Source of the DNA: Thermoplasmata archaeon
GTDB taxonomy: Archaea; Thermoplasmatota; Thermoplasmata; GCA-020350865
Length of the DNA stretch: 55,178 nucleotides
NCBI GenBank assembly: GCA_020348445.1
Contig: CP070751.1
Location: 896,138-951,315 of the forward strand
Reading direction: 5' to 3'
The translations under genes were made by a program, and so were the position numbers. The notes under the pieces were generated by a model that saw only the letters and a program-made list of their open reading frames with translations, did not search any database and was not told the DNA's origin. The stretch's first letter is position 1. Each line of letters starts with the position of its first letter. This document shows positions 22,401-40,615 of the stretch, one piece after another.

Positions 22401-25400
22401 TCATTGTTGTCGGAAAAATCCAGTTTGGTTGTAGCCGCTAGATTCCTGATATTCACTTGGCTGATATAATGGAACCACCATAGCTTGTTCGTTTTGCGGT
22501 CTGCGGGATTTTGAAGCAAAATAGACAATAGTAAAAACCACAATTGCCAGAATCGGGATTAGGAGCAGTAGAAGCCAAAAGGCGGTCTCTTCCCCTCCAT
22601 CATCCGAGCCTGCAGAGTCGTCGGGACCGTCAGAACCGTCGGAGCCATCTGAACCATCCGAGCCATCCCCACCATCAGAGGGATCTGATCCATCTTGACC
22701 GTCAGAGCCATCTGAGCCATCACCTCCGCTTGGAGAATTTACAGTGAGCACAACATCAGCCCCTAAAAATCCTCCATCATATGTGATGACAATCTCAAGG
22801 GATTTATCCCCTGCATCCACATTCGAGGGGATCGTGGTTGAAAAGGAATATACATCATCACCTGCAAGCTCGTCACCAAAACTTCCGTCATCGTACATCA
22901 TTTGATAGGACGAACCTCCAATTGGTGTAAGGTCGATTACAACGGACTGGATTGCATCTTCGGGATCATCAATCTCAACTGAAAATATTACTTCAGTCGA
23001 GTCCCCACTCGTTATTGTGTTTGGGGTGACGCTTACACCCAAAATCGTCGGAGCTATGGGTTCATTATTTATGGTCACGAAGATCTCATGGCTTGCTGTA
23101 TTACCTGCAAAATCCCTTGCTATGACTTTAATGGAGTATTGATCATCAGGATAATGCCCTGATTCTGTATCCCATTCCCACGAGTAACCATGGGAATCGT
23201 CCGTGAATTTATGTATATCATCAATGTAGAACTCCACCTGTGATATACCTTGGTTATCTGTGGCATAAACCTCGATGAGAACTGATCCTTTTACTGTAAC
23301 TCCATCCTCAGGAGATGTAATCTCCGCTTCAGGCGGTTCATAATCGGGGGGTGCTTCTGTAGTAAAGGTTCCCTCCTGGCTTGTTACCGTGTTGCCGATC
23401 TCATCACTGGATTCAACTTTGAAAAAATATGTGGTTGATGGCATAAGGTCAGTTAAAACCATGGTGTGTAGCGTTATATACGAGTCATCGCTTTTTGATA
23501 AAATATCACTTGAGCCTTCTATCCAGTATTCAACTAGACTATCACTGGAATCGTCTGTTTCCCACTGGATTGTGGCCTCAGAATAGGTCAGTTCAGTAAC
23601 TGTTGGACCAGTGATTATTGAAGGGGATGTATTATCAACGATAATGGTTAAGATACCAACGTTCGAGTACAGATCATCGTTATCCTGGGCTCGGACAGAT
23701 ATGGTGTGGCTTCCATCAGGTTCATCTGTTGTATCCCAATAATAGGTCCAGGTGGACCAATCTCCAAGGCTCGAGGTGTCCACTGCCTCCAGCCATACTC
23801 CCTCATCGATTTGAATCTCGACCTTGTGGATATCCCCATCCGAATCCGAGGCTGTGCCAGATAAAGCCACAATGCCATTTAAAAGCGTCCCGTCATTCGG
23901 AGTGAGGATCGCAATTTCGGGCGGGCTTTGAACGAATAGCGAAATCTCGGTAATTCCGCTTTTACCCACACTGTCAGTGACTTCAAGGGTTATGATATGC
24001 TCTCCCAAAGGCAATGTGGCAAAAAAGGACTCCGTATTTCCGATCTCGCCACTTTTATCAGAACTCCAAAGATATGTAAGATCATCACCATCTGGATCAT
24101 AACTGGACGACCCGTCAAAATAGATCTGTTGAGAAGGTGCGTGTATGCTGTTGTCTAAAGGTGAGTCTATTAGGGCGATGGGCCTTTCATTGATAAGCCA
24201 TCTTATAATGTTCTCGCCAAATATTTTGTTGTCATTTTCATGAATAAATTCGCTGTTGAGGCACTCCTCATCTGCAATGGCAACCACCTTTCCAAATCCA
24301 TATTCGGATGCGGCCACCACCACTCGGGTGTAGGCGATGCCATCGTAAGTGTACGCGATCTCTTCAGCTGGAGCAGAAGCGGTAAGGGGTAGTTGATGGG
24401 AGCCGAAGTGCAGTGAATCCACATTTTCTGTTATTTCATGCTCGTTGATAGAGTTGGTGTCGCCCATAAAAAGGACCAAATATGGAGATCCCCAACTTAT
24501 ACCGGAATAATCTGTGAGATCATTGTAGATTCCTTGATCAGCTTCACCGATTACAAGAAGTCCGCCACTTGCATCCACGAAGTTCTGGATTGCGGTGACT
24601 TCCTGTGAGGTGTAGGCTTCGGTGGGCCATGCTGTGATGAAAACATCATAATTCACAAGAAGCTCAGGTGTTATGGATTGGGTCGTGTAAAAGACCCTGT
24701 ACTTTTCGGGAACCATCTCTTCTATGTAATTGTAATATATACCATGACGCCAATCGGTGCCGTGGCCGTCATCAACCAAAATCCTACCCACCACAAGTGA
24801 AGCATCAATTTTCACATCCCTTTTATTATCCTCATATGATGTTTCTTGGGAAAGTGGCTCAACGTACACAGATACGTTGTAGCTTCTTGCCATTGTGGGT
24901 ATCCAAACAAAATCCGCTTCTTTTATCTCACCAATATCAATGGAATCAATGGTAAGAGAGTCAATCAATCCGTTATCTACATAGAACTTTACCTTGACAT
25001 TGGCCTCGTCAGAGGTTCCTATGTTCATTATCGTTGCATTTACCCGCACACTTTCTCCAGTATCCACAAATCTTGGATACTGCAGAGTCTGCACCCTAAG
25101 ATCATGCTCGTGTTTGACAACACCCGATGTAACTAAGGCAAAGCTTTGATCAAACTCGGGGGTTGCTAAATTACCGTCCATGGGAACGTTTTCCGCTGAA
25201 ACCTCTATCGTCCATTCACCTGAAATTGGATCTTCTATGAACACGTTCTCTACATTATTTGTATGATCAGCCCATCCCCCGGTAAAGGACCATTTTCCAC
25301 CATCCAATCCATAATTGCCAAATATGACCTCACCGTTTGGGTCGATGACCCTAAGATTAAGATCATTTATCAGATGCATGGACGAGGATGTCGTCCCAGG

Positions 25401-27029
25401 AACATCGGTCCAAACAAGGGAGATTTTCAATGGTGTATCGCCGGTAGGGGTGATTTTATATATTACAGTGTCTCCTGTTCTCAGTGCATTATTTTCGTTG
25501 TCAATGAAGTGGTTTTCCCCTATATCATACACATAGCCTACATCCACAAGTCCCCATCCCTGTGCATACCTGTCTGCCTGTGAGAAATCGTACTGGTATG
25601 CATCGGCTATGATTATTGCCTTCACAGTGGAGGGATGGGGTATAATTTCCTGGGGATTGTTGCCAAAATGATTTTTCATGTACATCTCGTATATCAATCC
25701 CACGGCACCAGCAGCAACGGGAGTTGCACCGCTGGTTCCTCCAAACGAGCTTGTGTATCCGTCACCTGATGTGGTGGTGTAAATTGAATCGTATGGTCCA
25801 CAGACATCGGGCTTGATCCTACCATCCGCAGTGGGTCCCTTGTTACCCTGACCTCCCGTGTGCTCGTCATCTGATCTGTCCGTATTATCGTAATGGTTTA
25901 CGCCACCCACCGAGATTACGTTTTTGGCTGCGGCATCTCTTGCTATGGATTCATCCCCTCCTTGATTACCTGTTGCCCATAATGTGGTTACATCATATTC
26001 AAATACAGATTCATCATTTTGTCTGGTAACTGATCCATATGTTCCATCTGTCGAGGTTGAACCCCAGCTGTTGCTCTGAAATAAGCCCCCCCAATTGTTG
26101 ACCATATTGGCAACAGATTGTTTTCGCCCCACACCCCAGTGGCAGAAAACACCTTCTGCACCTGGCAACATTCCCATTGCTCGCTCAGTTTCACCCTTTG
26201 CAAAGACGATACCAAAAGTGGAGGTCCCATGGGACTCTTCTTGTGGATTCCCATCCACGGCTAATAATTGCCCTTCAAATTCTGGGTGATTTTGATCTAT
26301 CCCATTGTCCTGAACCTCTCCCACAATACCTGTTCCCACAAATCCGTTCTCATGAAGCGGGGATTCCGCCCCTGTAAATACCCTGATGTTGTCCATAAAG
26401 GAAACAGGCGGTGAGTACTTGTCTATCCACTCCACCTCTGGAATGAACGCAATGTCCGCAATTTTAAGGGCATCGATTTCCACCACAAAATTAAAAGCTA
26501 TATTCTCCTCACGGATTATTCTTCCCCCAAAAGATGTGATTCTGTTTTTGACAAGCTTTTGGTTCTCAGGACCGTCATTCCCTCTGAAAACAATAACGTT
26601 CAATTGCACTTTCCCTGAGAGTGAGAAAAGTTCGGATTCGATCTTATAGGCGGGATGATATATGCCTGTCCATCTTATGAATGGGAGACTTTCGATTCGC
26701 TCTTTTACATCTTCCTCCATATGAAGGATATAGGTGTACTGGGGAACATAACCCAAAATATGGGCGCCGGATTCATGAATATCTTCCACCCACTGGGATT
26801 GAATTGGCCCCTTACACTGAACAAGGTAGTAATCATTTTCAATTGAATATCTCAAATGTCCGGGTATGTCTGGATTCGTTAATAATGGGTCGAATTCCGC
26901 AGCCTTGAGATGGATGGAAAGTGGTGTAAATCCATCTTCCGATACCTCCTCACCAATGGTTATTCCGACATTAGCCAGACAGGTAATAAGAAATAGTACA
27001 CTACATATAAATGTTATAGATTTTTTCAT
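22401..27029 (-). CDS. Secreted, membrane-anchored S8 subtilase with jelly-roll, CARDB, GATase-like, PKD, Ig and Fn3 domains
   Basis: Signal peptide MKKSITFIC...; catalytic triad motifs VQDNGID, SHGT and GGTSGATP; oxyanion GNQG; KPDVCGP; C-terminal TM FWLLLLLIPILAIVVFTIVYFA. The ATG at 27029 is preferred over 27071. Confidence 0.93.
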   Translation of the reverse strand: MKKSITFICSVLFLITCLANVGITIGEEVSEDGFTPLSIHLKAAEFDPLLTNPDIPGHLRYSIENDYYLVQCKGPIQSQWVEDIHESGAHILGYVPQYTYILHMEEDVKERIESLPFIRWTGIYHPAYKIESELFSLSGKVQLNVIVFRGNDGPENQKLVKNRITSFGGRIIREENIAFNFVVEIDALKIADIAFIPEVEWIDKYSPPVSFMDNIRVFTGAESPLHENGFVGTGIVGEVQDNGIDQNHPEFEGQLLAVDGNPQEESHGTSTFGIVFAKGETERAMGMLPGAEGVFCHWGVGRKQSVANMVNNWGGLFQSNSWGSTSTDGTYGSVTRQNDESVFEYDVTTLWATGNQGGDESIARDAAAKNVISVGGVNHYDNTDRSDDEHTGGQGNKGPTADGRIKPDVCGPYDSIYTTTSGDGYTSSFGGTSGATPVAAGAVGLIYEMYMKNHFGNNPQEIIPHPSTVKAIIIADAYQYDFSQADRYAQGWGLVDVGYVYDIGENHFIDNENNALRTGDTVIYKITPTGDTPLKISLVWTDVPGTTSSSMHLINDLNLRVIDPNGEVIFGNYGLDGGKWSFTGGWADHTNNVENVFIEDPISGEWTIEVSAENVPMDGNLATPEFDQSFALVTSGVVKHEHDLRVQTLQYPRFVDTGESVRVNATIMNIGTSDEANVKVKFYVDNGLIDSLTIDSIDIGEIKEADFVWIPTMARSYNVSVYVEPLSQETSYEDNKRDVKIDASLVVGRILVDDGHGTDWRHGIYYNYIEEMVPEKYRVFYTTQSITPELLVNYDVFITAWPTEAYTSQEVTAIQNFVDASGGLLVIGEADQGIYNDLTDYSGISWGSPYLVLFMGDTNSINEHEITENVDSLHFGSHQLPLTASAPAEEIAYTYDGIAYTRVVVAASEYGFGKVVAIADEECLNSEFIHENDNKIFGENIIRWLINERPIALIDSPLDNSIHAPSQQIYFDGSSSYDPDGDDLTYLWSSDKSGEIGNTESFFATLPLGEHIITLEVTDSVGKSGITEISLFVQSPPEIAILTPNDGTLLNGIVALSGTASDSDGDIHKVEIQIDEGVWLEAVDTSSLGDWSTWTYYWDTTDEPDGSHTISVRAQDNDDLYSNVGILTIIVDNTSPSIITGPTVTELTYSEATIQWETDDSSDSLVEYWIEGSSDILSKSDDSYITLHTMVLTDLMPSTTYFFKVESSDEIGNTVTSQEGTFTTEAPPDYEPPEAEITSPEDGVTVKGSVLIEVYATDNQGISQVEFYIDDIHKFTDDSHGYSWEWDTESGHYPDDQYSIKVIARDFAGNTASHEIFVTINNEPIAPTILGVSVTPNTITSGDSTEVIFSVEIDDPEDAIQSVVIDLTPIGGSSYQMMYDDGSFGDELAGDDVYSFSTTIPSNVDAGDKSLEIVITYDGGFLGADVVLTVNSPSGGDGSDGSDGQDGSDPSDGGDGSDGSDGSDGSDGPDDSAGSDDGGEETAFWLLLLLIPILAIVVFTIVYFASKSRRPQNEQAMVVPLYQPSEYQESSGYNQTGFFRQQ
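22601..22729 (-). repeat. Low-complexity (DGS)n juxtamembrane linker
   Basis: GGDGSDGSDGQDGSDPSDGGDGSDGSDGSDGSDGPDD; 9-nt period GAGCCATCN. Confidence 0.85.
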
Positions 27030-27236
27030 AATATAACGCCGCCCTGCATTATATGGGTAATAATTGACCAAGTGGTATTTAAACTTGATTGATAAACAAT
27101 AACACGGAATTTACTGATTTATGCATCTCCAACTGAATAACGCACTGTTTTACCCAAACAAAAACTTCATAACCCTTAAAATCAATATCCCTGGTGTACC
27201 TTTTTCTAAAAAGGATGGGAAAAAGGATGGGATGAC

Positions 27237-28145
27237 ATGGTATTTGATAAAAAGACACTGATTATTCCAGATGAGGCAAAGTTCGAGGAGCACAACATCG
27301 TAGCATCTGGCGATTTCATAATAGGCGATCGTGCAGATTTCGGTCTTGGGGTTATAACTGATGGAAGGGTATTTGTGGGGGAAAAGACACATGTTAAGGG
27401 CAGCATAACCACAAAAGACGACATAAGAATAGACATGTGGACGCATGTTGATGGAAACGTTACTGGGGAGAAGGACGTTTTTCTTGCTGAAAAGGTCAAA
27501 GTAAAAGGAAAGCTATCGGTAGGAAAAGACCTTGATCTTGCGGACTCTGCCGAGATCGAGAAGTTCGAGGCTAGGGGATGGATCAACGTTAGAAGTCCGA
27601 TTTCTCTTGTAATTTATATTTATCTGTACCTATTAGAATTGATGAGGCAGGGAAGGAGCCAGGAGGTTGCCATGATCCTGGACGAGCTCGAGGAGGATGA
27701 TAATGAATTTCTAGTATCGGAAGTGTTCACCTTCGTACCCAACGATTCTGAAATCCAGCTGCAGAGTGCCTCCGTAAAAGGAAACTGCCGCATCGGAGAG
27801 AATTGCAGGATACTGGGCAACTACACTGTCTCAGGTTGGGTGAGGGTGGGAGGCGAGACCAAATTTCACGGTTCGATAAACGCGGGAAGGGACGTGTATA
27901 TTGGTAACGGCTCGGAAATCGTGGGTAGCATAACATCCAAGGGCGAAGTTACCCTCGAAGGGGACGTCCGTATTCATGGAAACGTGAAGGCAAAAAGCGT
28001 AGAGATGTTGAAGAGCACGGTTGTGGACGGTACAATCCAGGCACAGGACGGAGTGACATTCACATCAAAGGAATCAAAGGAGATCGAAGTTAAGGTCGAA
28101 AGGTTCGAAAGAGGCTTGGATGATCTGGATGCGGTTTTAGATTGA
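27237..28145 (+). CDS. Bactofilin-like / polymer-forming beta-helix protein (COG4801-like)
   Basis: Two blocks of (V/I).G.(V/I).A..D(V/I) hexapeptide-like rungs separated by a helical linker. Confidence 0.75.
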   Translation: MVFDKKTLIIPDEAKFEEHNIVASGDFIIGDRADFGLGVITDGRVFVGEKTHVKGSITTKDDIRIDMWTHVDGNVTGEKDVFLAEKVKVKGKLSVGKDLDLADSAEIEKFEARGWINVRSPISLVIYIYLYLLELMRQGRSQEVAMILDELEEDDNEFLVSEVFTFVPNDSEIQLQSASVKGNCRIGENCRILGNYTVSGWVRVGGETKFHGSINAGRDVYIGNGSEIVGSITSKGEVTLEGDVRIHGNVKAKSVEMLKSTVVDGTIQAQDGVTFTSKESKEIEVKVERFERGLDDLDAVLD

Positions 28146-28212
28146 TGATAGGTTCCCCAAAATCCCACCCTCAGAGTTCCTCTTGGCTTTTGCTTAGGTG
28201 AGCTCCAAGGAA

Positions 28213-28374
28213 CACTTTGCCCCTCGGTTATGCTGTTAAATACTAAATCTTAAGTCTAGGGGCTCCTTTACCACTCTGTCGTGGCCTATTCCTTCTTCAT
28301 AATTAACAGATTTATAGACCACTTTGCCCTTAGGTTAAGTAATAGAATGTTGATATCTTAAGCCTAAGGGCTCC
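28213..28374. repeat. Two direct copies (28213-28266 and 28320-28374) of a ~55-bp element with inverted arms and a variable core
   Basis: CACTTTGCCC(C/T)T(C/A)GGTTA(T/A)G - variable AT-rich core - ATCTTAAG(T/C)CTA(G/A)GGGCTCC. Confidence 0.75.
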
Positions 28375-28439
28375 CACCCAATATCATGTACATAAGAATT
28401 AACGATTAGTAAAATACAAAATGCTCACGTGCCTTTCCA

Positions 28440-29543
28440 CTAATCAATATCCACAATCTGGTAATCCTTTTTTCCCATGCCGAGTTTCGCGGCATGGTCT
28501 ACATGGACATAAGGATCACGTCCAGTCAATCCAAACAAAAGGCCTTCTTTGGGATTTAGATTCTCGGCCTTTGAATCTGGAAGTCGTCCTGCATTTTCTA
28601 TAATGTCCAAGGAGGCCTGATCAATTGCCACGATGTCATCGCAAATGATTATGCCCTGATCGTTTATAACAGGGACGTCACTGTGCGGATGGCAGTCGCA
28701 GTGGGGCATTACCTCCATTATGAAGTTGATGTAAATCACCTTGTTGGGCTTGAATGTGTCAAGTGCGGCTTTTGCTGCTTCTGCCATTGCCAATTGGAAC
28801 TCGTCTTGCACAATGGGGAGGTGAAGCGCTTCTTGTTCGCAGACCTCAACACATCTTCTGCATTTGTGGCACATGAAATGATCTATCTCGATTTTATCAC
28901 CCATGGTCATGGCATCGTGGTCACATACCTCAACACAATCGCCACAGAGCTCGCATTTTTCTTCATCCCAAGAAAGCTGTGTATCAATGGAGTGTATCCT
29001 GCCCCTTTCTGATTTGCCGGATCGGGTATTTCCTGGAACCGCCCCCATTGCCAGGTTCTTGATGGCGCCTCCGTATCCTGCCTGGATGTGCCCTTTGCAA
29101 TGGGTCACCACCACCATGGCATCTGCATCAAAGATCTCGGATGCTATTTTCACTTCACCCAATAATTGACCTGCTTTCATTTTTTGATAATTTTTACCAG
29201 ATATGCCGTCGGCCAGAACCACGGGGCAGCCAACGGAGAGGTAGTTGATACCTTCCATGTTTGCTGTTTCCAGGTATTCCAGACCTTCAAGCCTTACGGT
29301 ATCAGTGACAAAAGGTCTTCCCCCAACAGAAGATACAGCCTCCACCACCTTTCTCAGGAAGATAGGCCTTACGATCCTGTGCCCTCCTTCAGAGCCAAAA
29401 TGTGTCTTGATTGCTACATAATCATCCTTGGTAATATGACGTGAAAGATCCATTTTTTTGAGCATTCTCTCGAGTTTAGCAACCATTGATGTCTGATAAC
29501 TAAAATCCATTGATCTTGCAGATGCGAAGTAAATGTTCTTCAA
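28440..29543 (-). CDS. DUF362 domain Fe-S protein with 2x[4Fe-4S] ferredoxin insert (COG2768-like)
   Basis: VAIKTHFG, THCKGH..AGYGGAIKNLAMG, CELCGDCVEVC, CHKCRRCVEVC, P.CDC, D.VAIDQAS.D. Confidence 0.88.
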   Translation of the reverse strand: MKNIYFASARSMDFSYQTSMVAKLERMLKKMDLSRHITKDDYVAIKTHFGSEGGHRIVRPIFLRKVVEAVSSVGGRPFVTDTVRLEGLEYLETANMEGINYLSVGCPVVLADGISGKNYQKMKAGQLLGEVKIASEIFDADAMVVVTHCKGHIQAGYGGAIKNLAMGAVPGNTRSGKSERGRIHSIDTQLSWDEEKCELCGDCVEVCDHDAMTMGDKIEIDHFMCHKCRRCVEVCEQEALHLPIVQDEFQLAMAEAAKAALDTFKPNKVIYINFIMEVMPHCDCHPHSDVPVINDQGIIICDDIVAIDQASLDIIENAGRLPDSKAENLNPKEGLLFGLTGRDPYVHVDHAAKLGMGKKDYQIVDID

Positions 29544-29564
29544 ATACTCACCACCTAATCGATT

Positions 29565-29813
29565 TCACCCTAAGATACGTTTTATTTCCTTTTTCAGTGC
29601 CTTTTTATCGGGCATGCCAGCATGCCACAATTTACCGTCTATCACGATGGCGGGTACCCTTTGAAAGCCCAGGGAAAGAACCCTGTCCTGATGTTCAAAT
29701 GCATTGAGTTCGACGTACTCAACCTGTGGATATTTCTTAAGCACCTTTTTTACCAGCTTTTTAGCAACGGGACATACATGGCATGTGGGATTGTAGAACA
29801 GCTCGATCTTCAT
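29565..29813 (-). CDS. Small thioredoxin/glutaredoxin-like protein (alternative start 29828)
   Basis: IELFYNPTCHVCP (CxxC) and the cis-Pro motif RVPAIVIDG. Confidence 0.9.
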   Translation of the reverse strand: MKIELFYNPTCHVCPVAKKLVKKVLKKYPQVEYVELNAFEHQDRVLSLGFQRVPAIVIDGKLWHAGMPDKKALKKEIKRILG

Positions 29814-29941
29814 TTTCCTTACCATCACGAATTCTATTTTGTATTTTGTGTGTAATATCTTATTTATTATAAAGGAGTTTCTAACACTGTCTCTTATCTA
29901 ATTTTAAATACCTATATCCCCTTTATCAGGCAGGTGATAAA

Positions 29942-30148
29942 ATGGATCCAGCAAAGAAAATCGAGGAAACAGCCAAGGGCACCATGGAGACCCTTGGAAA
30001 AGTCTATGAGAAACTCCCATCCATGAAAGATGTGATAAAGCTGATAGAGAACAAGCAGACCGAGTTTCGGCTGAAGTTCGAGAACCTGACATTGGACGGA
30101 GACATAGCCCTGGCAATAACCTTGATAAAAGAGGAAAAAACCGAGTGA
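29942..30148 (+). CDS. Hypothetical 68-aa protein
   Basis: AGGTGA RBS before the ATG; plausible codon usage. Confidence 0.65.
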   Translation: MDPAKKIEETAKGTMETLGKVYEKLPSMKDVIKLIENKQTEFRLKFENLTLDGDIALAITLIKEEKTE

Positions 30149-30323
30149 GAAATGGATTTTTACTCGGGAAGTATAATCGAATAGATACAATCCGTATGTT
30201 GACGAATCTAACATGTAGTATGTCGTCAATTCGCCCATAACCAAGAATTCGATTTACGTGTTAGCTCATGTAAGTCCCACTCAATCATACAGTTGTGGCT
30301 TACCTATAGAATAGAACCCAGGA

Positions 30324-30815
30324 ATGTGCAGTTCAATGAAAGAATTTGAAAGGCTGATTCGCCTCTGGAATCTCATAAAGGAAGGTTCTGTCGAGTGCGA
30401 ACTATCCCAAGAAAATGAAATGTTATGTGTGCACATCACACGCGATACCGTCACAATCGATATCAAGGATCCGAAAGCCGTTAGGCTGATTTGGCCCATA
30501 ATAATCAATTTCATCAAACCCAAGATGAGCACCAGGGATCATATCGAGGAAAGGGGTTCGTTCATATTGGGAATACTTATGTCTTTCAGGGCCAAAAGAA
30601 AAGGAATCTCCAATTATCTTTCTATTATCCAAGGGCTTGCCGCGCTCTTGGCAGAAAACAGAAAATGTGTTATCATAAAACAGAAAGGAAAGCAGCTTGC
30701 TAAACTCGGTTATGGAGCTGATTCCATGGGCATGCGACTTTTGAATCTCAAACATATTGAAGTAAGCGATCTATCCTCATTAATGGAAATACTGGAGGAT
30801 TCCATGTTGGGATAA
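30324..30815 (+). CDS. Hypothetical protein
   Basis: Fills the gap before pnp; globular-looking composition; no family recognised with confidence. Confidence 0.6.
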   Translation: MCSSMKEFERLIRLWNLIKEGSVECELSQENEMLCVHITRDTVTIDIKDPKAVRLIWPIIINFIKPKMSTRDHIEERGSFILGILMSFRAKRKGISNYLSIIQGLAALLAENRKCVIIKQKGKQLAKLGYGADSMGMRLLNLKHIEVSDLSSLMEILEDSMLG

Positions 30816-30886
30816 TCGCGATCAAGATTTTTTTTATATTTTTAAAAAATGTGTGAAATATTGTATCTTTTATGGCCCATGGTTTT

Positions 30887-33136
30887 TTATCGGTTTCTGC
30901 GGCCTCCCTTTCTCTTGTCGCTTTTCTTATATTTCCAACTACCACCTTTTCTGGGTCCCCCCCGTCTTGGTCTGTCCACATAACCTTCGGGTTTGGGAAG
31001 TAAAACCCTGGCCGAAACATCCACCTTGCCGTTCTCGATCCTGGTGACCTTCACCTTTACTGTATCGCCTAACTTCAGCCTGTCCGTGACCCTCTCCACC
31101 CTACCCCACTCGATCTCCGACACATGCAGAAAACCATCCTGACCGGGAGTGAGGTTGACAAAGGCACCGAAGTTCATGATCTTCACGACCTTTGCCTCAT
31201 CAAATATCTCCCCAACCTCCACCACCCTCACCAATTCCTTGATCGTCCTCTCGGCCTCTTTGGCGCGTTCGGCGTCTGTAGAGGTGATGAGAACCATTCC
31301 ATCATCCTCAATGTCGATCTGAACATCGAGCTCATCAGTAATGGCTCTTATGACCTTGCCTCCAGGGCCAATGACATCGCCGATTTTCTCGGGGTCGATC
31401 ATGAAGAATATGATACGTGGGGCATAGGGTGACAACTCAGCTCTTGGGGTGGAAATGGTCTTTTCCATTGAATCCAGGATTTTGTTCATACCATCCCGCA
31501 TCTGTGAAAATGTGGTATCGATGATGTCCATTGAAAGACCGCGGGTTTTGCTGTCCATCTGAATCGCGGTAATCCCATTTCGGGTGGAGGTGAACTTGAA
31601 ATCCATTCCCCCTGGTCCGTCTTCAAGGTCTTGAAGGTCTGTGAGCACTTTCCATTGTTTGTCATCGGAAGCAAGACCCATGGCTATCCCAGCAACCGAT
31701 TTTTTAATGGGAACACCTGCATCCATCAAGGCCAGGCTAGATCCACAGGTGGCAGCCATGGACGAGGAGCCGTTGGATGCCAGAACTTCGGTTACCACCC
31801 TAACTGTGTACGGAAACTCTTCCTCGGGTGGCAGAACAGGTCTCATGGACTTCTCTGCAAGGGTACCGTGCCCGATCTCGCGTCTTCCCGCTCCTCTAAT
31901 CGGTTTCACTTCGCCAACGCAGTAGGGGAGGAAGTTGTAGTGATGGAAGTACTTCTTAGTGCCGTCTAGCTCCATGGTCTCGATGGAAAGATCGTCACCT
32001 GGTGCACCCAATGTTACCACGGAAAGTACCTGGGTCTCACCTCGGCTGAAAAGGCCGCTTCCGTGGGTTCTAGGCAATACCGCAACCTCTGAGGACAGGG
32101 GCCGAAGCTGGTTTAATTTTCTTCCATCCACCCTCTGATCGCGATCAAGGATGGCTTTTGTGACCTGCTCCTCTATGAACTCATAAAAGAAACCTTCTAT
32201 CAAATTTTCGAGGTATTCTTTTGTGGCCTCTTCGTCTCTCTCAGGCGAGCTGAGCTTTTTAGAAAACTCATCTACCAGCGTTTTCTCAAGCTCCTTTATA
32301 ATCTCTTTTCGCTCCCCCTTTGAACCCTTTGGGGTGTTGAAAAGGTACTTATCAAGATGGGGTATGGCAGCCTTCTTGATACTTTCAATAGTCACTTTTT
32401 CCTCGGGGGAGTAATCTGATTTAAAGATAAGCTCTTCGGATGAGGCCTTTTTCATTCCAACCTCATTCCTGATTTTGTCAAGGAACTGAGCTTGCGGTGC
32501 CATGACCTCCATTGCCATGCCAAGTGCGGATTTCGCTTCCCCGTCCTTAATCTCCCTGGCATCGCATTCGATCATGGTGATACGCTCTCCGTCACCCATC
32601 ACAACCAGCTGCAGGTCTGAGTATTCAAGCTCATCTGCAGTTGGATTCACTATAAAGTGGCCGTTCACCAATCCTATCCTCACCCCCGCCACAGGTCCGT
32701 CGAAGGGGATATTTGAAATATGAACAGCGCAGCACGCAGCTAATATGGCCACGATATCTGGTTTGTTCTCGTGATCCAGGCTTAAGGGCAGGCATATGAC
32801 CTGCACATCGTTTCTCATGTCCTGGGGAAACAGGGGCCGAAGACCGCGGTCTATCATCCTTCCTATGAGAATTGCCTCGTTTGAGGGTCTTCCTTCCCGT
32901 TTTATGAATCTCGGACCTTTTATTCTTCCGGCAGCGAAATACCGCTCCTCAAAATCTACCATGAGGGGAAAGAAGTCCATCCCCTCCCTTGCCTCCTTGG
33001 ACATTGTAGCTGTGGCAAGAATCGTTGTTCCGCCCATCTGGGCAGTCACAGCAGCACCTGCTTGGGATGCCATGCGCCCGTACTCGAATATCACTTTCTT
33101 TCCTGAAAAATCGGTCTCGAATCTCTTGAAAGTCAT
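30887..33136 (-). CDS. pnp: Bacterial-type polyribonucleotide nucleotidyltransferase (PNPase)
   Basis: RFIKREGRPS, RMIDRGLRPLFP, R.DGR, RTHGSGLFSRGETQ, HHYNF.PY.VGE, RREIGHG, SNGSSSMA, ED..GGMDFK, KH (IGPGGKVIRAI) and S1 (FGAFV...DGFLHVSEI). GGTGA RBS before ATG 33136. Confidence 0.97.
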   Translation of the reverse strand: MTFKRFETDFSGKKVIFEYGRMASQAGAAVTAQMGGTTILATATMSKEAREGMDFFPLMVDFEERYFAAGRIKGPRFIKREGRPSNEAILIGRMIDRGLRPLFPQDMRNDVQVICLPLSLDHENKPDIVAILAACCAVHISNIPFDGPVAGVRIGLVNGHFIVNPTADELEYSDLQLVVMGDGERITMIECDAREIKDGEAKSALGMAMEVMAPQAQFLDKIRNEVGMKKASSEELIFKSDYSPEEKVTIESIKKAAIPHLDKYLFNTPKGSKGERKEIIKELEKTLVDEFSKKLSSPERDEEATKEYLENLIEGFFYEFIEEQVTKAILDRDQRVDGRKLNQLRPLSSEVAVLPRTHGSGLFSRGETQVLSVVTLGAPGDDLSIETMELDGTKKYFHHYNFLPYCVGEVKPIRGAGRREIGHGTLAEKSMRPVLPPEEEFPYTVRVVTEVLASNGSSSMAATCGSSLALMDAGVPIKKSVAGIAMGLASDDKQWKVLTDLQDLEDGPGGMDFKFTSTRNGITAIQMDSKTRGLSMDIIDTTFSQMRDGMNKILDSMEKTISTPRAELSPYAPRIIFFMIDPEKIGDVIGPGGKVIRAITDELDVQIDIEDDGMVLITSTDAERAKEAERTIKELVRVVEVGEIFDEAKVVKIMNFGAFVNLTPGQDGFLHVSEIEWGRVERVTDRLKLGDTVKVKVTRIENGKVDVSARVLLPKPEGYVDRPRRGGPRKGGSWKYKKSDKRKGGRRNR

Positions 33137-33658
33137 TTTTTTCACCACTATTTTCACGGGTTTGATATCATCTTTTTTTGTCTGATATAAAGCCAAATGC
33201 GTTTGGTCTGTAAATCCCATGGCTTTCTTGTATATTATATTATTCTATTATATAGGGGATTGGTTGTCTGCTAATAAAAGGTTTACCATTGCCTGGAAAA
33301 TGAAGGGGCACTGGGTATTTAAATGACCCCGACAATGTCCATTGACTTAGAGAGTTCTAAACTTCCGGTATGTATTACTAAGGTGCTCACAGGCAACTTG
33401 GTTGATAATGCGGCAAATCAGGTAATTCGACCCCTGTTTCGGTTTCCAATTAATGATTTAATATAGAGGGCATGTGGATTTATTATACTATTTAAGATTT
33501 TTGCGGAACATTCCACAGAAGATTTATATACAACCTTTAACAGCTGATATTCCAGGGTGAGAATAGCGACTATGCAATCAGATATAACTCCTTATTAACA
33601 GATTCATCCCCAAATATTCTATGGATATATAGCCAAAATGCCTCGATATTTGTGAGGA

Positions 33659-33946
33659 TTGGCAGAAATTCAAAGGCACAACAGTCTTATATCTACAGAT
33701 ATGAGGATTCTCCTCCATCTGTTGAACCATCATGGTTCCACAAGTCAATTTGATGTACCTTTTGAATTAACAAAGATGGGAATTGCTCAGCAGGTCTGTA
33801 TAAGTTATGGATACGCCCCCCGGATTATTAACAAGTTGATTGATGAGGGTTATGTTCAAGAATGCTGTGGACGTATAAAATGTTGTAGGAAAAAACAAAA
33901 ATATTATGTTCTTACAGATAACGGGATAAAATATGCAAGAAAATAA
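33659..33946 (+). CDS. Stand-alone winged-HTH protein homologous to the N-terminus of the 41579 ATPase
   Basis: RILLHLL...PFELTKMGIAQ...PR....L...GYV.E........KQKYY.LTD.G aligns with the N-terminus of 41579..42847. Confidence 0.75.
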   Translation: MAEIQRHNSLISTDMRILLHLLNHHGSTSQFDVPFELTKMGIAQQVCISYGYAPRIINKLIDEGYVQECCGRIKCCRKKQKYYVLTDNGIKYARK

Positions 33947-34177
33947 AAAACGGACTGTCAAACTTTTTGATTACATTGAAACTACCAAATGACACATTAA
34001 AAACAATGAAATTAAAGGATATAACGCTTTATTTAGAGAAAAAGAAACCCTGCTTTGGAATTTCTGAGATGGATATCTATACAATCCTAACAAAAGATTA
34101 TACACCTGACATTGAATCCCTAAAAATATAAAAACAGTTTTTTGACTTTTCTGAGCCAAACGAAAGGTTATGGATTT

Positions 34178-37100
34178 TCATAGAGGTACAACCCAGGTTT
34201 TCTCAACCTTTGAATGAATGTAGTAACCCCTTCCAATCTCGAAGTAATCTGATTCGCCGAGCTTTTCCCATTTCTGAATTTTAGAGTTGTAAGTCCAGAT
34301 CGCATCAACATCCGAACCATAGGTGATGTTGTTCAGTCCCTCAGTTCTGTTATAACTAGTCAGAGAGGGATAACTTACCAGATTCCACCCCGGATAAAGC
34401 GTAATACTTTGGTTTTCAATTGGCTTGGTGCCGTTCCAAACGAAACCCGTCCCTCCAAGCCGGGTGATATAGATCCAAAAGCCCATACTGTGGTCAATAG
34501 TGTGCAAATCGTTCAAGTGAGAAGGCTTTGAGATTTGGTAATGCTTCCAATGGTTAAAGCCATCGGAGGCGTTATACTGCTGTACAGCGTCGTAAAACCC
34601 ATTTATAGAATCTAAAACACTGCTAAGCCCTGTATCAGACTGGATATACGGAATTGAAACCAAGTTCCAGCCCTCATAAAGCGGGAAGCCGACCTCTACA
34701 AATATCTCGGTATGAGATGTGGACATGTTCACATCCCTTGGATTATCCACAAATGTTTTAAATGGATGTGAAACCTCCAGGGTTGTGATGTTTTCTGTGG
34801 CGGTATTGCTCCCATTGTATATTCTATCCGTTATCAATATCCAACGGACAAAACCATCACTGTCAGTTTGTGACTCGCTGCCGCCGAAACCGGTTGTTTG
34901 ATAGATTGGTTCTCCATTATCAGTCACATTAACATCAACCCCCGATATAGGGGTCAGGGTCGCACCCAGCACCGATACATCTAAATAATTCTTGACTGTG
35001 AGATTTGAGTTGCCATCGATGTCCACTTTAGCACCATTAAAACTCGTGTTCAATGTTGTTATTTGGGATTTGCTCCGTATAAAGAAATCAGCTAAACCGG
35101 AATGTGTTATCGTGCTGTTTTCTATTAAATAACTGCTCGATATCGGCCGTATTCCGTATATAGTTGAATTGGTAATCGTGGTATTAACAATGTAAGGAAA
35201 AGCACCGAACGTGTATATTCCAACACTGGTTGTATCAATGATATTGTTTATTATAAGTGGGCTTGACTGGCCTTGGCAGAAGATTGTCCCCGAGGAGGAA
35301 GAATCGAGAAAGCCAAATATCGTGTTATTGCTTATAACCGTATTTTTCCCTTCTTTATGAACGCCAATTGCTCCCCCGCCTTCCGAATTAATTCCTACGA
35401 TGGTATTATTATCTATCAGTATATTTGAATACACATCCATTCCCGCACCATATTGAGCTACCAGGATGTAATTATTTCTGAGCTTACTGTTATATATATT
35501 CTTTTGAAAAATGATGACTGGAGTTCCATCACCATGTTTAATCCCACCTACATAATCAATGCCTCCTGATCCAGCTGTAATCAAAGGATTGTCATGTATA
35601 TCAATAGTATCACCTCCATAGGCATAGATACTTCGCTCGCCATAGCCCCCACCAGCAACTGATGACCCTGCATAATTGTTCCCGCCAGCGCCTCCTCTGA
35701 TAGTAAGGTGCTGGTATTCAGAATTCAAACCGTTACTGATGTAGATAGCATGTGAACCCCGAGGCCAAAGCCAGCCATTGGGATGATAGTCATCTCCACC
35801 TTTTCCTCCCGTGATGGAACCGCCATTGGCAGAGACACCCCCCCAGTTTAAGACATATATTCCATAGCCACCAACATTTGGACAGCTATATTCACCATAA
35901 TTGTCACCGCCCTCACCCCCGGTTATGTTTATGTTCTCAGCATATACAAAAGAATTATCGGAGCGGATGCCGTCGCCTCCTCCTCCAGCTCCTTTTGGTA
36001 TACCTATTTGACTGTCCACATAAATATCACCGCCCTCACCACCTCTGATTTTACTTTCAAATATTAATGCATCCGAACCAGCAAAGGCATAAACACCTTG
36101 ACCACCACCTCCAGCATCCGCTGATGTACCTGTAACTGTATTGTTGCCGCCATCACCACCAGAAATATTGCTGTTTTCAACCGTTATATTCGTAGAATTA
36201 TAGATGAAAATACCGTGGCCTCCACATCCCGCTGTAAGCGGTGGAGATACGAGTGCCCCCACTCCGGTATTATTTCCGCCTTTTCCACCGCTGATATTAT
36301 CGTTATATCTTATATATCCAACACTGCAATAGTAGAGGGAGATACCATTTCCTCCCTTGCCGGCAATCCAACCGCTAACGTAATCGGCGTGGTTGTCCCC
36401 GCCAATGCCACCGGTAATCTTGTTATTTCCCACAACCAGTATTTGGCCTGTTGAGTCGTCATCGCTGATATTGATCCCGTCACCACCCCAGCCTGCGATC
36501 CCGTCTTGCAGTGCGTTGTTATCTCCCCCATCTCCGCCAGTAATGTTCTGATTTTCACTGATATTGATTGCCGGCGGTAAAAGGTAATCGGCGACAGGAG
36601 AGAAGCAAATGGCATGACCACCTGCCCCGGCCCGGCCGTCATTCAAATTGTTATCGCCTCCATTCCCGCCTTTTATTAGATAATTATCCCTGATTTCCAT
36701 TTTCCCGTCAAAATTCTGACATGATATCGCAGCACCACCATCCGGGATTACCGAGCCGCCGAAATCATCACCATCTCCGCCAGTTATATTGTTACCATCG
36801 ATGATTATCGTCCCTGAGGCTGTTCCAGTGCAATTAATTCCGTTGCCTCCAGGTCTAAAAGAGCCTGAAGTTGCATTCCAACCGAAAATATCGCTGTATT
36901 TGATCTCTACGGTTCCCCCATTGACATAAATTCCGGTGGCTAAGTTGTTCGTAATTGTACTCTTGTTTATTGTCACACTGCCATCCATTATTGTTATACC
37001 GCTTCCCGCATACTCGATTAGACAGTTATATATTTCACCGACACCACCGCTAAAGTAAATAGAGTTCCAGTCGCCAGCGTCTGGAGGTGCACCATTGGAC

Positions 37101-37414
37101 GTGAAGACAATTCCTGCACCTCCACCAAGGGCATTCAAAGTACCTTGAATTTCCAACTTAATGTCCGAGCCGAAATCGAAATAACAAACATCGCCGGGAT
37201 TGATGTTCAGTGTATCCGGAGTGGGTGCGCCTGCGATTGTAACGGTCTCATGGAATGTATAGGTTCCACTTCCACCAGTTACTGCACCACCAGAATTTGC
37301 CACCAGATCGTCCATATCCCAGATTACACCTGAACCAGGTGTTGTATATGCACCTGCATTCGGCATCCTCAATGGAACAATTACAAGTGTTATACTGAGA
37401 ATTACAACCCACAT
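34178..37414 (-). CDS. Secreted beta-helix surface protein with ~11 Gly-rich repeats and a C-terminal GWNLVS.P domain
   Basis: Hydrophobic N-terminus; parallel beta-helix rungs (GI.I...I.NN.I); repeated I.GG.GG[DN]N; PLYEGWNLVSIP and YPGWNLVSYP. Confidence 0.85.
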   Translation of the reverse strand: MWVVILSITLVIVPLRMPNAGAYTTPGSGVIWDMDDLVANSGGAVTGGSGTYTFHETVTIAGAPTPDTLNINPGDVCYFDFGSDIKLEIQGTLNALGGGAGIVFTSNGAPPDAGDWNSIYFSGGVGEIYNCLIEYAGSGITIMDGSVTINKSTITNNLATGIYVNGGTVEIKYSDIFGWNATSGSFRPGGNGINCTGTASGTIIIDGNNITGGDGDDFGGSVIPDGGAAISCQNFDGKMEIRDNYLIKGGNGGDNNLNDGRAGAGGHAICFSPVADYLLPPAINISENQNITGGDGGDNNALQDGIAGWGGDGINISDDDSTGQILVVGNNKITGGIGGDNHADYVSGWIAGKGGNGISLYYCSVGYIRYNDNISGGKGGNNTGVGALVSPPLTAGCGGHGIFIYNSTNITVENSNISGGDGGNNTVTGTSADAGGGGQGVYAFAGSDALIFESKIRGGEGGDIYVDSQIGIPKGAGGGGDGIRSDNSFVYAENINITGGEGGDNYGEYSCPNVGGYGIYVLNWGGVSANGGSITGGKGGDDYHPNGWLWPRGSHAIYISNGLNSEYQHLTIRGGAGGNNYAGSSVAGGGYGERSIYAYGGDTIDIHDNPLITAGSGGIDYVGGIKHGDGTPVIIFQKNIYNSKLRNNYILVAQYGAGMDVYSNILIDNNTIVGINSEGGGAIGVHKEGKNTVISNNTIFGFLDSSSSGTIFCQGQSSPLIINNIIDTTSVGIYTFGAFPYIVNTTITNSTIYGIRPISSSYLIENSTITHSGLADFFIRSKSQITTLNTSFNGAKVDIDGNSNLTVKNYLDVSVLGATLTPISGVDVNVTDNGEPIYQTTGFGGSESQTDSDGFVRWILITDRIYNGSNTATENITTLEVSHPFKTFVDNPRDVNMSTSHTEIFVEVGFPLYEGWNLVSIPYIQSDTGLSSVLDSINGFYDAVQQYNASDGFNHWKHYQISKPSHLNDLHTIDHSMGFWIYITRLGGTGFVWNGTKPIENQSITLYPGWNLVSYPSLTSYNRTEGLNNITYGSDVDAIWTYNSKIQKWEKLGESDYFEIGRGYYIHSKVEKTWVVPL

Positions 37415-37593
37415 TATCCCAATCGAGGTTAACCTTTTATTCGTTCAAACCCTCCATATGATTTAATCGTAATCCTTCCTTATCTACTTTTCTAAATCGA
37501 AATAAGGATATAAAGGTTGTTTGGAACAATTTTTGCATATTTTACATTGTTTGATGTTATTGACCATCAAGGCCCTCTGTTCCCTGGCTCAAG

Positions 37594-38898
37594 CTAAGGG
37601 TATGCATAGGTAAAGAAATACACATAACCAGCTGAGTCGCCTGCCACAAAATAGTCATAAAATTGTGTGGGTTGACAATAGGAATAACTGATCGCAACTG
37701 AGGTTACCGTTCCGTTTGCTGTATAGGAGTCGATTATGTTATCTGAATTCTGAGCAACTAGAATAATACTGTTTTCGGGAGTAAAACTCCCAAATAATCT
37801 AAAATTGTAAGCAGAGTTGTTATCGTAGGTGGCATCTGCAGAACAAATCAAACCAGTGGACCAATTGCGTATCTTATTAGGACTGGTATAATACGACTCA
37901 TCGCTCTCATCATCATTAGGTCCTTCACCTGAGATCACACTAAAAGTAGGACCGGCAGGTGCGACAGTATTGCAGTCCGATACTGCAACAGCATAGATAT
38001 CACCGGCCTCCGCTCTCGTCCAACCTGGGGTTTGATCGTCTCCAGTCCCCCATGTCCCGTCTGCACCCACATCAAATTCATATACATTACTGGTTCCTGC
38101 ACCAGGATTCGGATCATCTTCGCCAGCAACTACGATTAAACCGTTTCTTGCTATGTCTACATTAACATAAGAATCAGTGGTGATGTTGAACCATACCATC
38201 TCATGATTGCTTGGATCGGTGTTGTTGTAGAATTCAATTCTATTATTATCTGAGCTTGCAACAATCCAGTTTCCATCCTCTGATATTCTGACATTCATAA
38301 CATTACCTTCAGAAATCTGTTCGGACCATATATTCGATCCAGTTGAAGCATTGATAACGTAGATACAATCACCGCTGCATGATACTACAAATGCATCATA
38401 ATTACCCTGACTGTAAAACCGGGCTGACGAGTTGGATACATCCACCGAGTAACAATCACCCCTACTTCGATACATGTCGTTATACCATAGAAAATTACCA
38501 GATATATCAAACGCATATACTTCGTCGGAAGTAGTTCCAGCTACAACATATTGTGCATCTCCTGAGATCGCTACCCCGTGACTGGTGCCATATGACGAAA
38601 AATCTGCTATACTTAAACTATTATTATACCACTGCAAATTACCACTCGCATCAAAAACAGACAAATTCTGTGCGCTTCCAACGACCACATATACATTACT
38701 AGGATTAGAGTTTCCATCCGAGATATCGACACTACGGACCGCTGATCCAGTATAACTGACTCCCTGAAATTCAAGATAGTCACTTTGAGCACTTACGTTT
38801 TTCGTAATTATCGGGATTGCGACAAATGTTATGATTATTGTTGCAATTACAACTATAATCAGAATCCCGCTCAGAAATTTTATTTCATCCTTTTCCAT
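37594..38898 (-). CDS. N-terminally anchored beta-propeller (WD40/PQQ-like) protein
   Basis: N-terminal TM; repeated V[DA]IS.DG.Y[VI]VAG...VY.FD.SGN..W blades; GGGGGAAG RBS. Confidence 0.8.
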   Translation of the reverse strand: MEKDEIKFLSGILIIVVIATIIITFVAIPIITKNVSAQSDYLEFQGVSYTGSAVRSVDISDGNSNPSNVYVVVGSAQNLSVFDASGNLQWYNNSLSIADFSSYGTSHGVAISGDAQYVVAGTTSDEVYAFDISGNFLWYNDMYRSRGDCYSVDVSNSSARFYSQGNYDAFVVSCSGDCIYVINASTGSNIWSEQISEGNVMNVRISEDGNWIVASSDNNRIEFYNNTDPSNHEMVWFNITTDSYVNVDIARNGLIVVAGEDDPNPGAGTSNVYEFDVGADGTWGTGDDQTPGWTRAEAGDIYAVAVSDCNTVAPAGPTFSVISGEGPNDDESDESYYTSPNKIRNWSTGLICSADATYDNNSAYNFRLFGSFTPENSIILVAQNSDNIIDSYTANGTVTSVAISYSYCQPTQFYDYFVAGDSAGYVYFFTYAYP

Positions 38899-39196
38899 TT
38901 TTCTTCCCCCTAATTTATATCGTTACTATTGTGGAACTTACAAGATACAAGCCTTTTTGGAAATTTTAACAAAAAGGTTTATATATCAGAAAAGCAGCCA
39001 GATGATAGAAAGGTTCATATATGCAAAAAATTCAGAAAAACAAAGATGCTACCCAGGCATCATTATTAAAAATAACTGATTAAGTATAAAGCATATTACA
39101 CAAAATCCAAAACAGTTTCTTGTCTCATGACTTATTTTTATTGTTCCATCAACTCGATAATATTAATCTCTCGAAAGTATTCTTTGTTTAGTATGT

Positions 39197-39279
39197 TGTG
39201 CCCCCAATCCCCTCTTAAGGAAAAAATTATTCGGGTCAGATAGCCGCGATTATGCGAGGAAGGGTGAGGGTTTGGGGGC
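39197..39279. ncRNA. Candidate structured RNA or hairpin element in the intergenic region upstream of nop5
   Basis: GC-rich arms GCCCCCAATCCCCTC (39200-39214) and GAGGGTTTGGGGGC (39266-39279) in AT-rich DNA; ACA follows the stem on the minus strand. Confidence 0.3.
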
Positions 39280-39586
39280 TATATTGACATTGGATTTCAA
39301 TGCTCTTATATCTTACTATCGATTTGATTAATACTTCGTAGGCTCAAAATAGTTCATTGTACTTACAATAAGGTTGAGCAGGAATAAGGTGGATCTCCTG
39401 TCTTCGTTTATTTCCTCAAGAATTTGAATATCTACGCAGAGTCCATAAACTTACTCATAATAAAGCGCGCACTATGGAGATATAATCAAATCCAATATCA
39501 TATGTGGATGAAAGGATACTTATATTATATAGTGATTGAATATACCTTTTTGAGGTTGATCAATAAAAAATCACAAAAGTGATAGC

Positions 39587-40582
39587 ATGATACTGTTTAC
39601 AACCTGGTTCGGGACATTCCTTTACGAAAATGAAAAAGTAGTAAAATCCAACCTCTTTCCAAATAACGCAAATGAGATAGCAAAACGCCTGAAGGCAGTG
39701 GCCAATAAAGAGATACTTGATGAAGAGAAAACCTTGGCCGAGGGGCAAGATAGGATTTTGGTATTGGACGAGCGCCTTCGCATACTGGGCGGCGAGCTAA
39801 TCGAGGAGGAAATGCCTGATCTTTCCCCCGATGAATTCGGTTTTTCCAATGATATGCTTCATGAGGCCATGATGATACTTGCTAAGGATAAGACCCAAGA
39901 GCCTGTATCTGTTAACGAAAGTGTTTCTCAGGCTGTGAATGCGCTGGATGATCTCATGCAGAGCGCAAATATGCTTTCCGAACGCCTTCATGAGTGGTAT
40001 GGAATGCATTTTCCTGAGCACAGGAAGGTTATGAAGGAAGAGGAATTTATAGAGCTTGTGATTCAGGAATGCAAAAAGGGCGGACTGGACAACGAGCCAG
40101 ATTTGGAACCCATCTCGGAACTGGCAAGGACACTACGGGATCTGCATGAGAGGATGAGGGTGCTTGAGGACTACATCAAAAGCCAAATGGAAGATAATGC
40201 TGCCAATCTGTCATTTCTTGTGGGCCCAATCATAGGGGCAAGGCTGATCTCCAAGGCTGGGGGATTAAAGAGGCTCGCGACACTTCCTTCTGGTACTATT
40301 CAAGTTTTGGGTGCAGAGAAAGCATTGTTTCGGCATCTAAGAGACGGTTCAAATCCCCCGAAACACGGACTGATCTTCCAGCATCCATTGATTCACCGCG
40401 CACCTTATTGGCAGAGGGGAAAGATAGCAAGGGCATTTGCATCCAAGATAGCCATTGCCGCAAAACTGGACGAGCATTCTAATAAGGCCCTTGGAGAGGA
40501 TCTAAAAAACGATCTCCTTGAGAGGATCGAGGAGATCAAGGAAAAGTACCCAAAGCCGCATAAAAAAGGCTCAAAAAAATGA
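39587..40582 (+). CDS. nop5: C/D box sRNP core protein Nop5 (aNop56/58)
   Basis: ERLHEWYG.HFPE, GPIIGARLI..AGGL.RLA.LPSGTIQVLGAEKALFRHL, PKHGLIFQHP, RGKIARA.A.KI.IAA..D. Confidence 0.95.
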   Translation: MILFTTWFGTFLYENEKVVKSNLFPNNANEIAKRLKAVANKEILDEEKTLAEGQDRILVLDERLRILGGELIEEEMPDLSPDEFGFSNDMLHEAMMILAKDKTQEPVSVNESVSQAVNALDDLMQSANMLSERLHEWYGMHFPEHRKVMKEEEFIELVIQECKKGGLDNEPDLEPISELARTLRDLHERMRVLEDYIKSQMEDNAANLSFLVGPIIGARLISKAGGLKRLATLPSGTIQVLGAEKALFRHLRDGSNPPKHGLIFQHPLIHRAPYWQRGKIARAFASKIAIAAKLDEHSNKALGEDLKNDLLERIEEIKEKYPKPHKKGSKK

Positions 40583-40615
40583 TCAAAGCAAATGTAGGTT
40601 TCAAGGCTGATTTTC

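Follow-up and report, generated by a model that had tools for sequence, protein, structure and literature searches.

We identified a complete pnp gene for a polyribonucleotide nucleotidyltransferase (PNPase; 749 amino acids plus stop) on the minus strand of the window, the whole 55,178-nucleotide stretch of DNA from a sediment-borne Thermoplasmata archaeon that was analysed here. The coding sequence (30887..33136) was delineated from the open reading frame and its translation and from matches to the protein family models TIGR03591 and NF008805. According to the ORF list and its translation the frame is open over 30887..33220 (minus strand), and an in-frame ATG at 33220 was weighed as a leaderless start and rejected, as it is absent from two genomes of the same genus (G001 and G003). 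The supported start is the ATG at 33136, because this ATG, the first residues of the protein and a GGTGA closely upstream are conserved in both of these congeneric genomes. The GGTGA Shine-Dalgarno box was read directly at 33142..33146 (minus strand) with a spacer of 5 nt to the ATG, and precedes the ATG by 5–6 nt in G001 and G003; a preliminary description of this DNA had named the same box and the same start, but had placed the box 6 nt before the ATG. Further upstream, the element GGTAAACCTTTTATTAG (33271..33287, minus strand) resembles archaeal BRE/TATA boxes and is a putative promoter; it is the sole well-conserved block in an upstream alignment of the window with G001 and G003. The pnp gene appears to be monocistronic, and an Rfam search across positions 27000–41000 returned no known RNA families.

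Pfam domains follow each other in canonical order on a single chain: RNase_PH twice, RNase_PH_C, the PNPase helical domain, KH and S1, all encoded on the minus strand. The first RNase PH domain (PH1) spans approximately 32699..33103, was matched by Pfam RNase_PH in two stretches, and has its limits set by the RNase_PH_C domain behind it (32507..32698; PF03725, residues 175–238). The all-helical PNPase linker (32117..32380; PF03726, residues 281–368) scored 22.9 bits, slightly below the cut-off of 24.6. The second RNase PH domain (PH2; 31709..32110; PF01138, residues 371–504) contains the catalytic centre with the motifs GRREIGHG, SNGSSS and LEDGPGGMDFK and is followed by the RNA-binding domains KH (31238..31405; PF00013, residues 606–661) and S1 (31025..31219; PF00575, residues 668–732). 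A conserved LLPKPEGYV linker leads to a C-terminal tail rich in arginine, lysine and glycine (30890..31018), which extends 43 residues past S1, 16 of them lysine or arginine. A basic tail of 36–120 amino acids is present in every complete archaeal orthologue.

The protein scored 838.5 bits against the NCBIfam PNPase model TIGR03591 (cut-off 525.05), covering profile positions 2–687 of 689, and 832.7 bits against NF008805 (cut-off 471). Scores for TIGR02696 (guanosine pentaphosphate synthetase I / PNPase; 577 bits, cut-off 1107) and for the Rrp41 model TIGR02065 (about 85–108 bits, 107.9; cut-off 318.7) were below the respective cut-offs. The best solved relative is the staphylococcal PNPase 5yjj (617 bits), and with identities of 45–50% to solved trimeric PNPases the protein is predicted to assemble into a homotrimeric ring. 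GRREIGHG, SNGSSS and ED-x5-DFK, the last of which we take to be equivalent to D486, D492 and K494 of Escherichia coli, line up with solved PNPases and 65 orthologues, and all 36 archaeal PNPases compared have retained the motifs for phosphate binding and catalysis. The full PH1-helical-PH2-KH-S1 architecture and the retained catalytic residues proposed in the preliminary description are thus borne out. The channel loop, FFRR in E. coli, reads KGPRFIKREGRP here and retains the phenylalanine and basic residues, with a one-residue insertion in common with CPR bacteria. Five pairs of pnp genes were compared: dN is 0.16–0.25, dS has reached saturation in four pairs and amounts to 3.2 in the remaining one; selection on pnp looks purifying. 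From these sequence features we infer that pnp encodes a genuine, working PNPase that is expressed and enzymatically active.

Counting as carriers all genomes with a score above the curated cut-off, we found PNPase in each of the five genus members and in the only further genome sampled from the order. Among named genomes, the one most closely related to the genus is CP070739, a closed chromosome with the label Methanomassiliicoccales archaeon; mcrA was not found. PNPase occurs in 25 of the 401 genomes of the class sample, only in six families (4/4, 1/1, 11/13, 1/1, 5/5 and 2/2), and in 34 of the 401 genomes of the phylum sample; a single family of another class, with 24 genomes, contributes 21 of these. 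Scanning of named genome records recovered more than 30 Thermoplasmatota MAGs with an orthologue of 61–79% identity, as well as two MAGs labelled Undinarchaeota with a PNPase of 59–60% identity. The latter two have sizes of 3.6–3.8 Mb, far above the expectation for such a label. The patchy spread of pnp over families needs either several losses or several transfers within the phylum. The preliminary description had allowed that pnp might already be documented as common in this archaeal order; it is indeed common among genomes of the order and several sister lineages, but a literature search outside subscription journals found no publication on archaeal PNPase.

The genome from which the window derives also encodes the archaeal exosome. 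Its operon SBDS-Rrp4-Rrp41-Rrp42 is intact, and Rrp4 (251 bits, cut-off 200), Rrp41 (367 bits, precisely 366.8, cut-off 319), Rrp42 (314 bits, cut-off 280) and Csl4 (187 bits, cut-off 90) all scored above their cut-offs. Rrp41 aligns along its length with solved archaeal Rrp41 structures, with identical phosphate-binding and catalytic motifs. Neither RNase R nor bacterial-type RNase J was found in this genome. As judged from its genes, the exosome is complete and apparently active, and PNPase would therefore supplement it in this organism. The preliminary description had suggested that PNPase may supplement or replace the exosome; the former applies here, whereas replacement is confined to other classes of the phylum. 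There, 23 of 33 PNPase carriers lack Rrp41 at E ≤ 1e-60. By bit score, three carriers have a weakened Rrp41 (172–253 bits) and nine have none. In one family of 24 genomes, PNPase was found in 21 and Rrp41 in only 5. Across the phylum sample, Rrp41 was detected at the same threshold in 11 of 34 PNPase carriers versus 355 of 367 non-carriers, counts that overstate independence because the genomes are related.

These losses among carriers of other classes, set against the retention of Rrp41 by nearly all non-carriers, suggest a redundancy between the two systems that appears sufficient to permit the loss of one of them, and PNPase could have taken over 3' decay in the window organism as well, leaving exosome genes that are vestigial or of minor importance. 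We regard this as quite unlikely, given the intact operon, the above-threshold scores of all four subunits and the match of the Rrp41 active-site motifs to those of the solved enzyme. Moreover, Rrp41 exceeded the cut-off in all 18 other PNPase-bearing members of the class that were tested, and within the genus the exosome subunits are better conserved (80–88% identity; Rrp4 76% in G002) than PNPase (71–79%).

The genes surrounding pnp encode Nop5, an archaeal-type ATPase_2 protein, UbiA, a DUF362 iron-sulfur protein and a thioredoxin-like protein. In agreement with the preliminary description, which had noted no rpsO or other bacterial neighbour, we found near pnp no rpsO, no NYN gene and no obvious bacterial companion; NYN genes are present elsewhere in the genome. 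The closed chromosome G001 and G003 have the same genes on both sides of pnp, with a 6.4 kb insertion (34178–38898) in the pnp-Nop5 interval of the window as the sole difference. A repeat likewise lies just upstream of pnp. Nop5, a C/D-box sRNP protein, is the divergent neighbour of pnp within the genus; outside the genus this adjacency was not seen, and across the archaeal lineages pnp has no recurrent neighbour with a link to RNA. One archaeal clade has oligopeptidase F, form III RuBisCO and an ABC transporter in common around pnp.

The position of Nop5 and the long basic tail beyond KH and S1 would fit a PNPase whose retained function lies outside bulk RNA decay, such as 3' tailing only, maturation of rRNA or sRNA, or nucleotide chemistry linked to DNA repair, with general decay left to the exosome. 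Bacterial PNPases have secondary roles of this kind. Such a restricted role is nevertheless very unlikely, as the Nop5 adjacency stops at the border of the genus, the catalytic centre is canonical, and the loss of the exosome in PNPase-bearing sister classes speaks for a PNPase that is able to carry out general decay.

The best bacterial relatives of the window PNPase are 50–53% identical to it, diverse bacterial PNPases 40–53%, and a profile-free exhaustive search of 1.8 billion cluster representatives found nothing above 53% identity. Phylogenetic trees were calculated with FastTree (199 sequences) and with IQ-TREE (LG+C20+F+G4, quick search, 62 sequences). The archaeal PNPases form a single clade with an SH-aLRT support of 100 in the IQ-TREE analysis, in agreement with FastTree, and this clade falls within a larger one (support 99) that also contains CPR sequences of the Uhrbacteria, Falkowbacteria and Parcubacteria types and is itself nested within further CPR and other bacteria. 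Separately from the trees, three rare shared features support this nesting independently. The one-residue insertion in the channel loop (GSRF/GPRF versus GG-F) is common to archaea and all CPR; QDLEDGxGGMDFK was found only in archaea and Parcubacteria-type CPR, with EDxxGDMDFK in other bacteria and other CPR; and the Arg/Gly-rich tail is common to archaea and CPR, with an LLPKPEGYVE linker shared with the closest bacterial sequences (L045, L046). Of the non-archaeal contigs examined for gene neighbours, the two closest bear the labels 'Methanoregula sp.' and 'Gammaproteobacteria'; in both, a CPR-style NYN-nuclease gene lies directly upstream of pnp, and they are read as mis-binned or mislabelled CPR. 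The direction of transfer is from bacteria to archaea, because the archaeal clade is the nested one and most archaea are without PNPase. Taken together, phylogeny and rare signatures indicate one old transfer from Parcubacteria-type CPR as the source of all archaeal PNPases and support the inter-domain transfer postulated in the preliminary description.

With a G+C content of 50.2% and a GC3 of 56.4%, pnp ranks at the 98th percentile of 2007 long ORFs (ORF mean 42.5%; genome 41.5% G+C). Taken alone, values this high could suggest foreign DNA. A modest G+C excess of pnp over its flanks is found in every archaeal and CPR orthologue, and the G+C content of pnp tracks that of the host in every lineage, from 46 to 63.5%. 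PNPase identity to the window sequence declines from the within-genus range given above to 64–68% outside the genus, in parallel with the exosome subunits of the same genomes. Together with the saturated dS, the host-tracking base composition and the parallel identities indicate long residence and largely vertical descent of pnp. The PNPase tree splits the genus into two groups, one of which is nearer to sequences of other families; some exchange of pnp within the phylum is therefore possible. The alternative that the genus acquired pnp recently from a bacterium could draw on G+C and GC3 values in the top 2% of the genes of the genome and on the insertion and repeat just upstream, yet it is highly improbable, since orthologues with 59–79% identity are spread over many families and several classes and group together as one clade, no bacterial relative comes closer than 50–53%, G+C content follows the hosts and dS is saturated even within the genus.

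The window genome is a single contig of 5,156,303 bases, the same that carries the exosome. Read support was taken from assembled short-read contigs of two sediment samples (X1, which may be the source sample, and X2 from the same study; X3 and X4 provided small parts only). A Logan contig covers positions 29777–33725, i.e., pnp plus flanks of 1.1 kb and 0.6 kb, without any mismatch and at a depth of 30.1, compared with 28.9 and 28.6 on either side. In the second sediment sample, contigs 30251–31749 and 32428–33566 span both ends of pnp. A bacterial fragment joined to an archaeal contig by mis-assembly or contamination, for which the prior expectation of PNPase-free archaea is the sole support, can hence be discarded for all practical purposes: as to the chimerism raised in the preliminary description, assembled contigs span both junctions at even depth, the same flanking genes are found in a closed congeneric chromosome, and the orthologue recurs in dozens of independent MAGs of archaea.

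With high confidence we therefore favour the reading that the window encodes a working PNPase that goes back to one acquisition from CPR by Thermoplasmatota, has been inherited mainly vertically, and is maintained alongside the exosome. An ancestor within Thermoplasmatota would have acquired pnp once from a Parcubacteria-type CPR bacterium, after which the gene would have been passed on mostly vertically while its base composition adjusted to that of the host. Only pnp would have been retained; its CPR partners, rpsO and the NYN-nuclease gene, are not adjacent, and pnp stands as a lone gene next to Nop5 with an archaeal-style putative promoter and Shine-Dalgarno box. In the predicted trimeric ring, KH and S1 would feed single-stranded 3' ends through the channel and past the phenylalanine loop to PH2, where phosphate would attack the terminal phosphodiester and release nucleoside diphosphates (3'-to-5' phosphorolysis). 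At an excess of nucleoside diphosphates the reverse reaction would add heteropolymeric tails. The basic tail probably confers unspecific affinity for RNA and would have come with the gene from CPR. The cell would consequently possess two homologous phosphorolytic machines for 3' decay and tailing and no RNase R, and PNPase and exosome may, if anything, divide the labour between them.

We tentatively consider a further possibility, namely that the lineage is a preserved intermediate in the replacement of one machine by the other, in which both rings coexist with split tasks, and that sister classes later dropped the exosome. As one example of such a split, and equally tentative, PNPase with its basic tail might take care of tailing and of the decay of bulk mRNA, with the processing of rRNA and sRNA left to the exosome. 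Should this hold, the window organism and its class would be a natural system for studying tasks of the exosome beyond those of PNPase. A paper from December 2024 described PNPase as absent in Archaea (PMC12430004), and an overview from 2020 named the exosome, or RNase R in some lineages, as the basis of 3' decay in archaea (PMC7144898). Our analysis adds a canonical PNPase as a stable, inherited gene of a large Thermoplasmatota group and, for a core enzyme of RNA metabolism, a clear additional case of gene flow from CPR to archaea. With PNPase plus a complete exosome here and PNPase alone in related classes, the phylum is a natural series in which redundancy and replacement between two homologous RNA-degrading machines could be studied. 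In these lineages, annotation and metabolic reconstruction would be misled by taking pnp for a bacterial marker or for evidence of bin contamination.

Within the PNPase family the enzyme is an ordinary representative; its peculiarities are the archaeal host, the descent from CPR and the presence of an intact exosome in the same genome. It has the same domain order, a similar length and the same phosphate- and metal-binding motifs as bacterial PNPases (5yjj, 8zaw, 4am3 and 3cdi), but resides in an archaeal host without the rpsO-pnp operon or leader. The bacterial rpsO-pnp context, into which CPR have a NYN gene inserted, is a feature of gene order that does not define the family. The channel loop is GPRF with one extra residue, in contrast to GG-F in most bacteria; the metal-site motif is EDGPGGMDFKFT instead of EDxxGDMDFKVAG; and S1 is followed by an Arg/Lys/Gly-rich tail (about 36–43 amino acids). 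The archaeal exosome performs the same phosphorolytic and tailing chemistry as PNPase (PMC7667871). Its Rrp41-Rrp42 ring with an Rrp4/Csl4 cap is a homologous RNase PH-fold ring capped by S1/KH domains; four separate small proteins make it up, in contrast to the single fused chain of PNPase. PNPases of Parcubacteria-type CPR (Uhrbacteria, Falkowbacteria and relatives) are nearest in the trees and have the GSRF-type insertion, QDLEDGxGGMDFK and the basic Gly/Arg tail in common with the archaeal enzymes. They differ in having a NYN-nuclease gene directly upstream in the closest CPR contigs examined, whereas archaeal pnp stands alone; the archaeal and CPR proteins are about 50% identical, and GPRF and DFKFT are specific to the archaeal sequences.

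The PNPase gene (pnp, 30887-33136 on the reverse strand, 749 aa) and the gene of the archaeal C/D-box sRNP protein Nop5 are separated in the window by a 6.4 kb stretch (34178-38898), which codes for a beta-helix protein of 1078 aa and a PQQ-like beta-propeller protein of 434 aa. In two other genomes of the same genus, G001 and G003, pnp and the Nop5 gene are adjacent and divergent, and most of this stretch has no counterpart at that position, while a 171-residue part of the beta-helix protein has a match elsewhere within the G001 locus. Upstream of pnp lies a repeat of ~530 bp (33644-34177), of which the genome holds three further copies with 75-83% identity. Short-read depth at this repeat is ~81 compared with ~30 in its surroundings, and the repeat is a breakpoint of short-read contigs.

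Convergent with pnp is an ORF of 163 aa (30324-30815, forward strand) without a Pfam match, which is kept at the same position in both G001 and G003 with 56-69% identity. Further genes in the window encode a secreted-type subtilase (Peptidase_S8) of 1556 aa with CARDB, Big_7, and fibronectin-like repeats (22401-27071, reverse strand) and, adjoining it, a bactofilin-domain protein (27237-28145). The PNPase of a third congeneric genome, G004 (sequence L010), carries an additional, near-identical S1 domain past its basic tail, so that S1 appears to have been duplicated in tandem.

The chromosome consists of one contig of 5.16 Mb; its genus relatives have genome sizes of 2.3-3.7 Mb and members of the class mostly 1.2-2.6 Mb. 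Ten long same-strand ORFs in ~14 kb of this contig (2363709-2377827) have a G+C content of 54-62%, as against 41.5% for the genome, and this region is a candidate foreign island. Because a search of the genome for mcrA did not recover the gene, the organism is probably a non-methanogen, although its relatives are labelled Methanomassiliicoccales.

PNPases were also encountered in genomes with doubtful labels. Archaeal-type sequences (L076, L077) are present in two MAGs labelled Undinarchaeota (G697, G698) with sizes of 3.6-3.8 Mb, for which the label would predict far smaller genomes; in both, a gene resembling that of the exosome subunit Rrp41 occurs only as a very divergent copy (115-117 bits against a curated cut-off of 319). 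PNPases of the type found in CPR (Patescibacteria) are encoded on contigs labelled Methanoregula sp. or Gammaproteobacteria (L046, L081, L048, L059, L066, L067, L083, L085), which are probably mis-binned or mislabelled. Both such contigs whose gene neighbours were examined have a CPR-style NYN nuclease gene immediately upstream of pnp.
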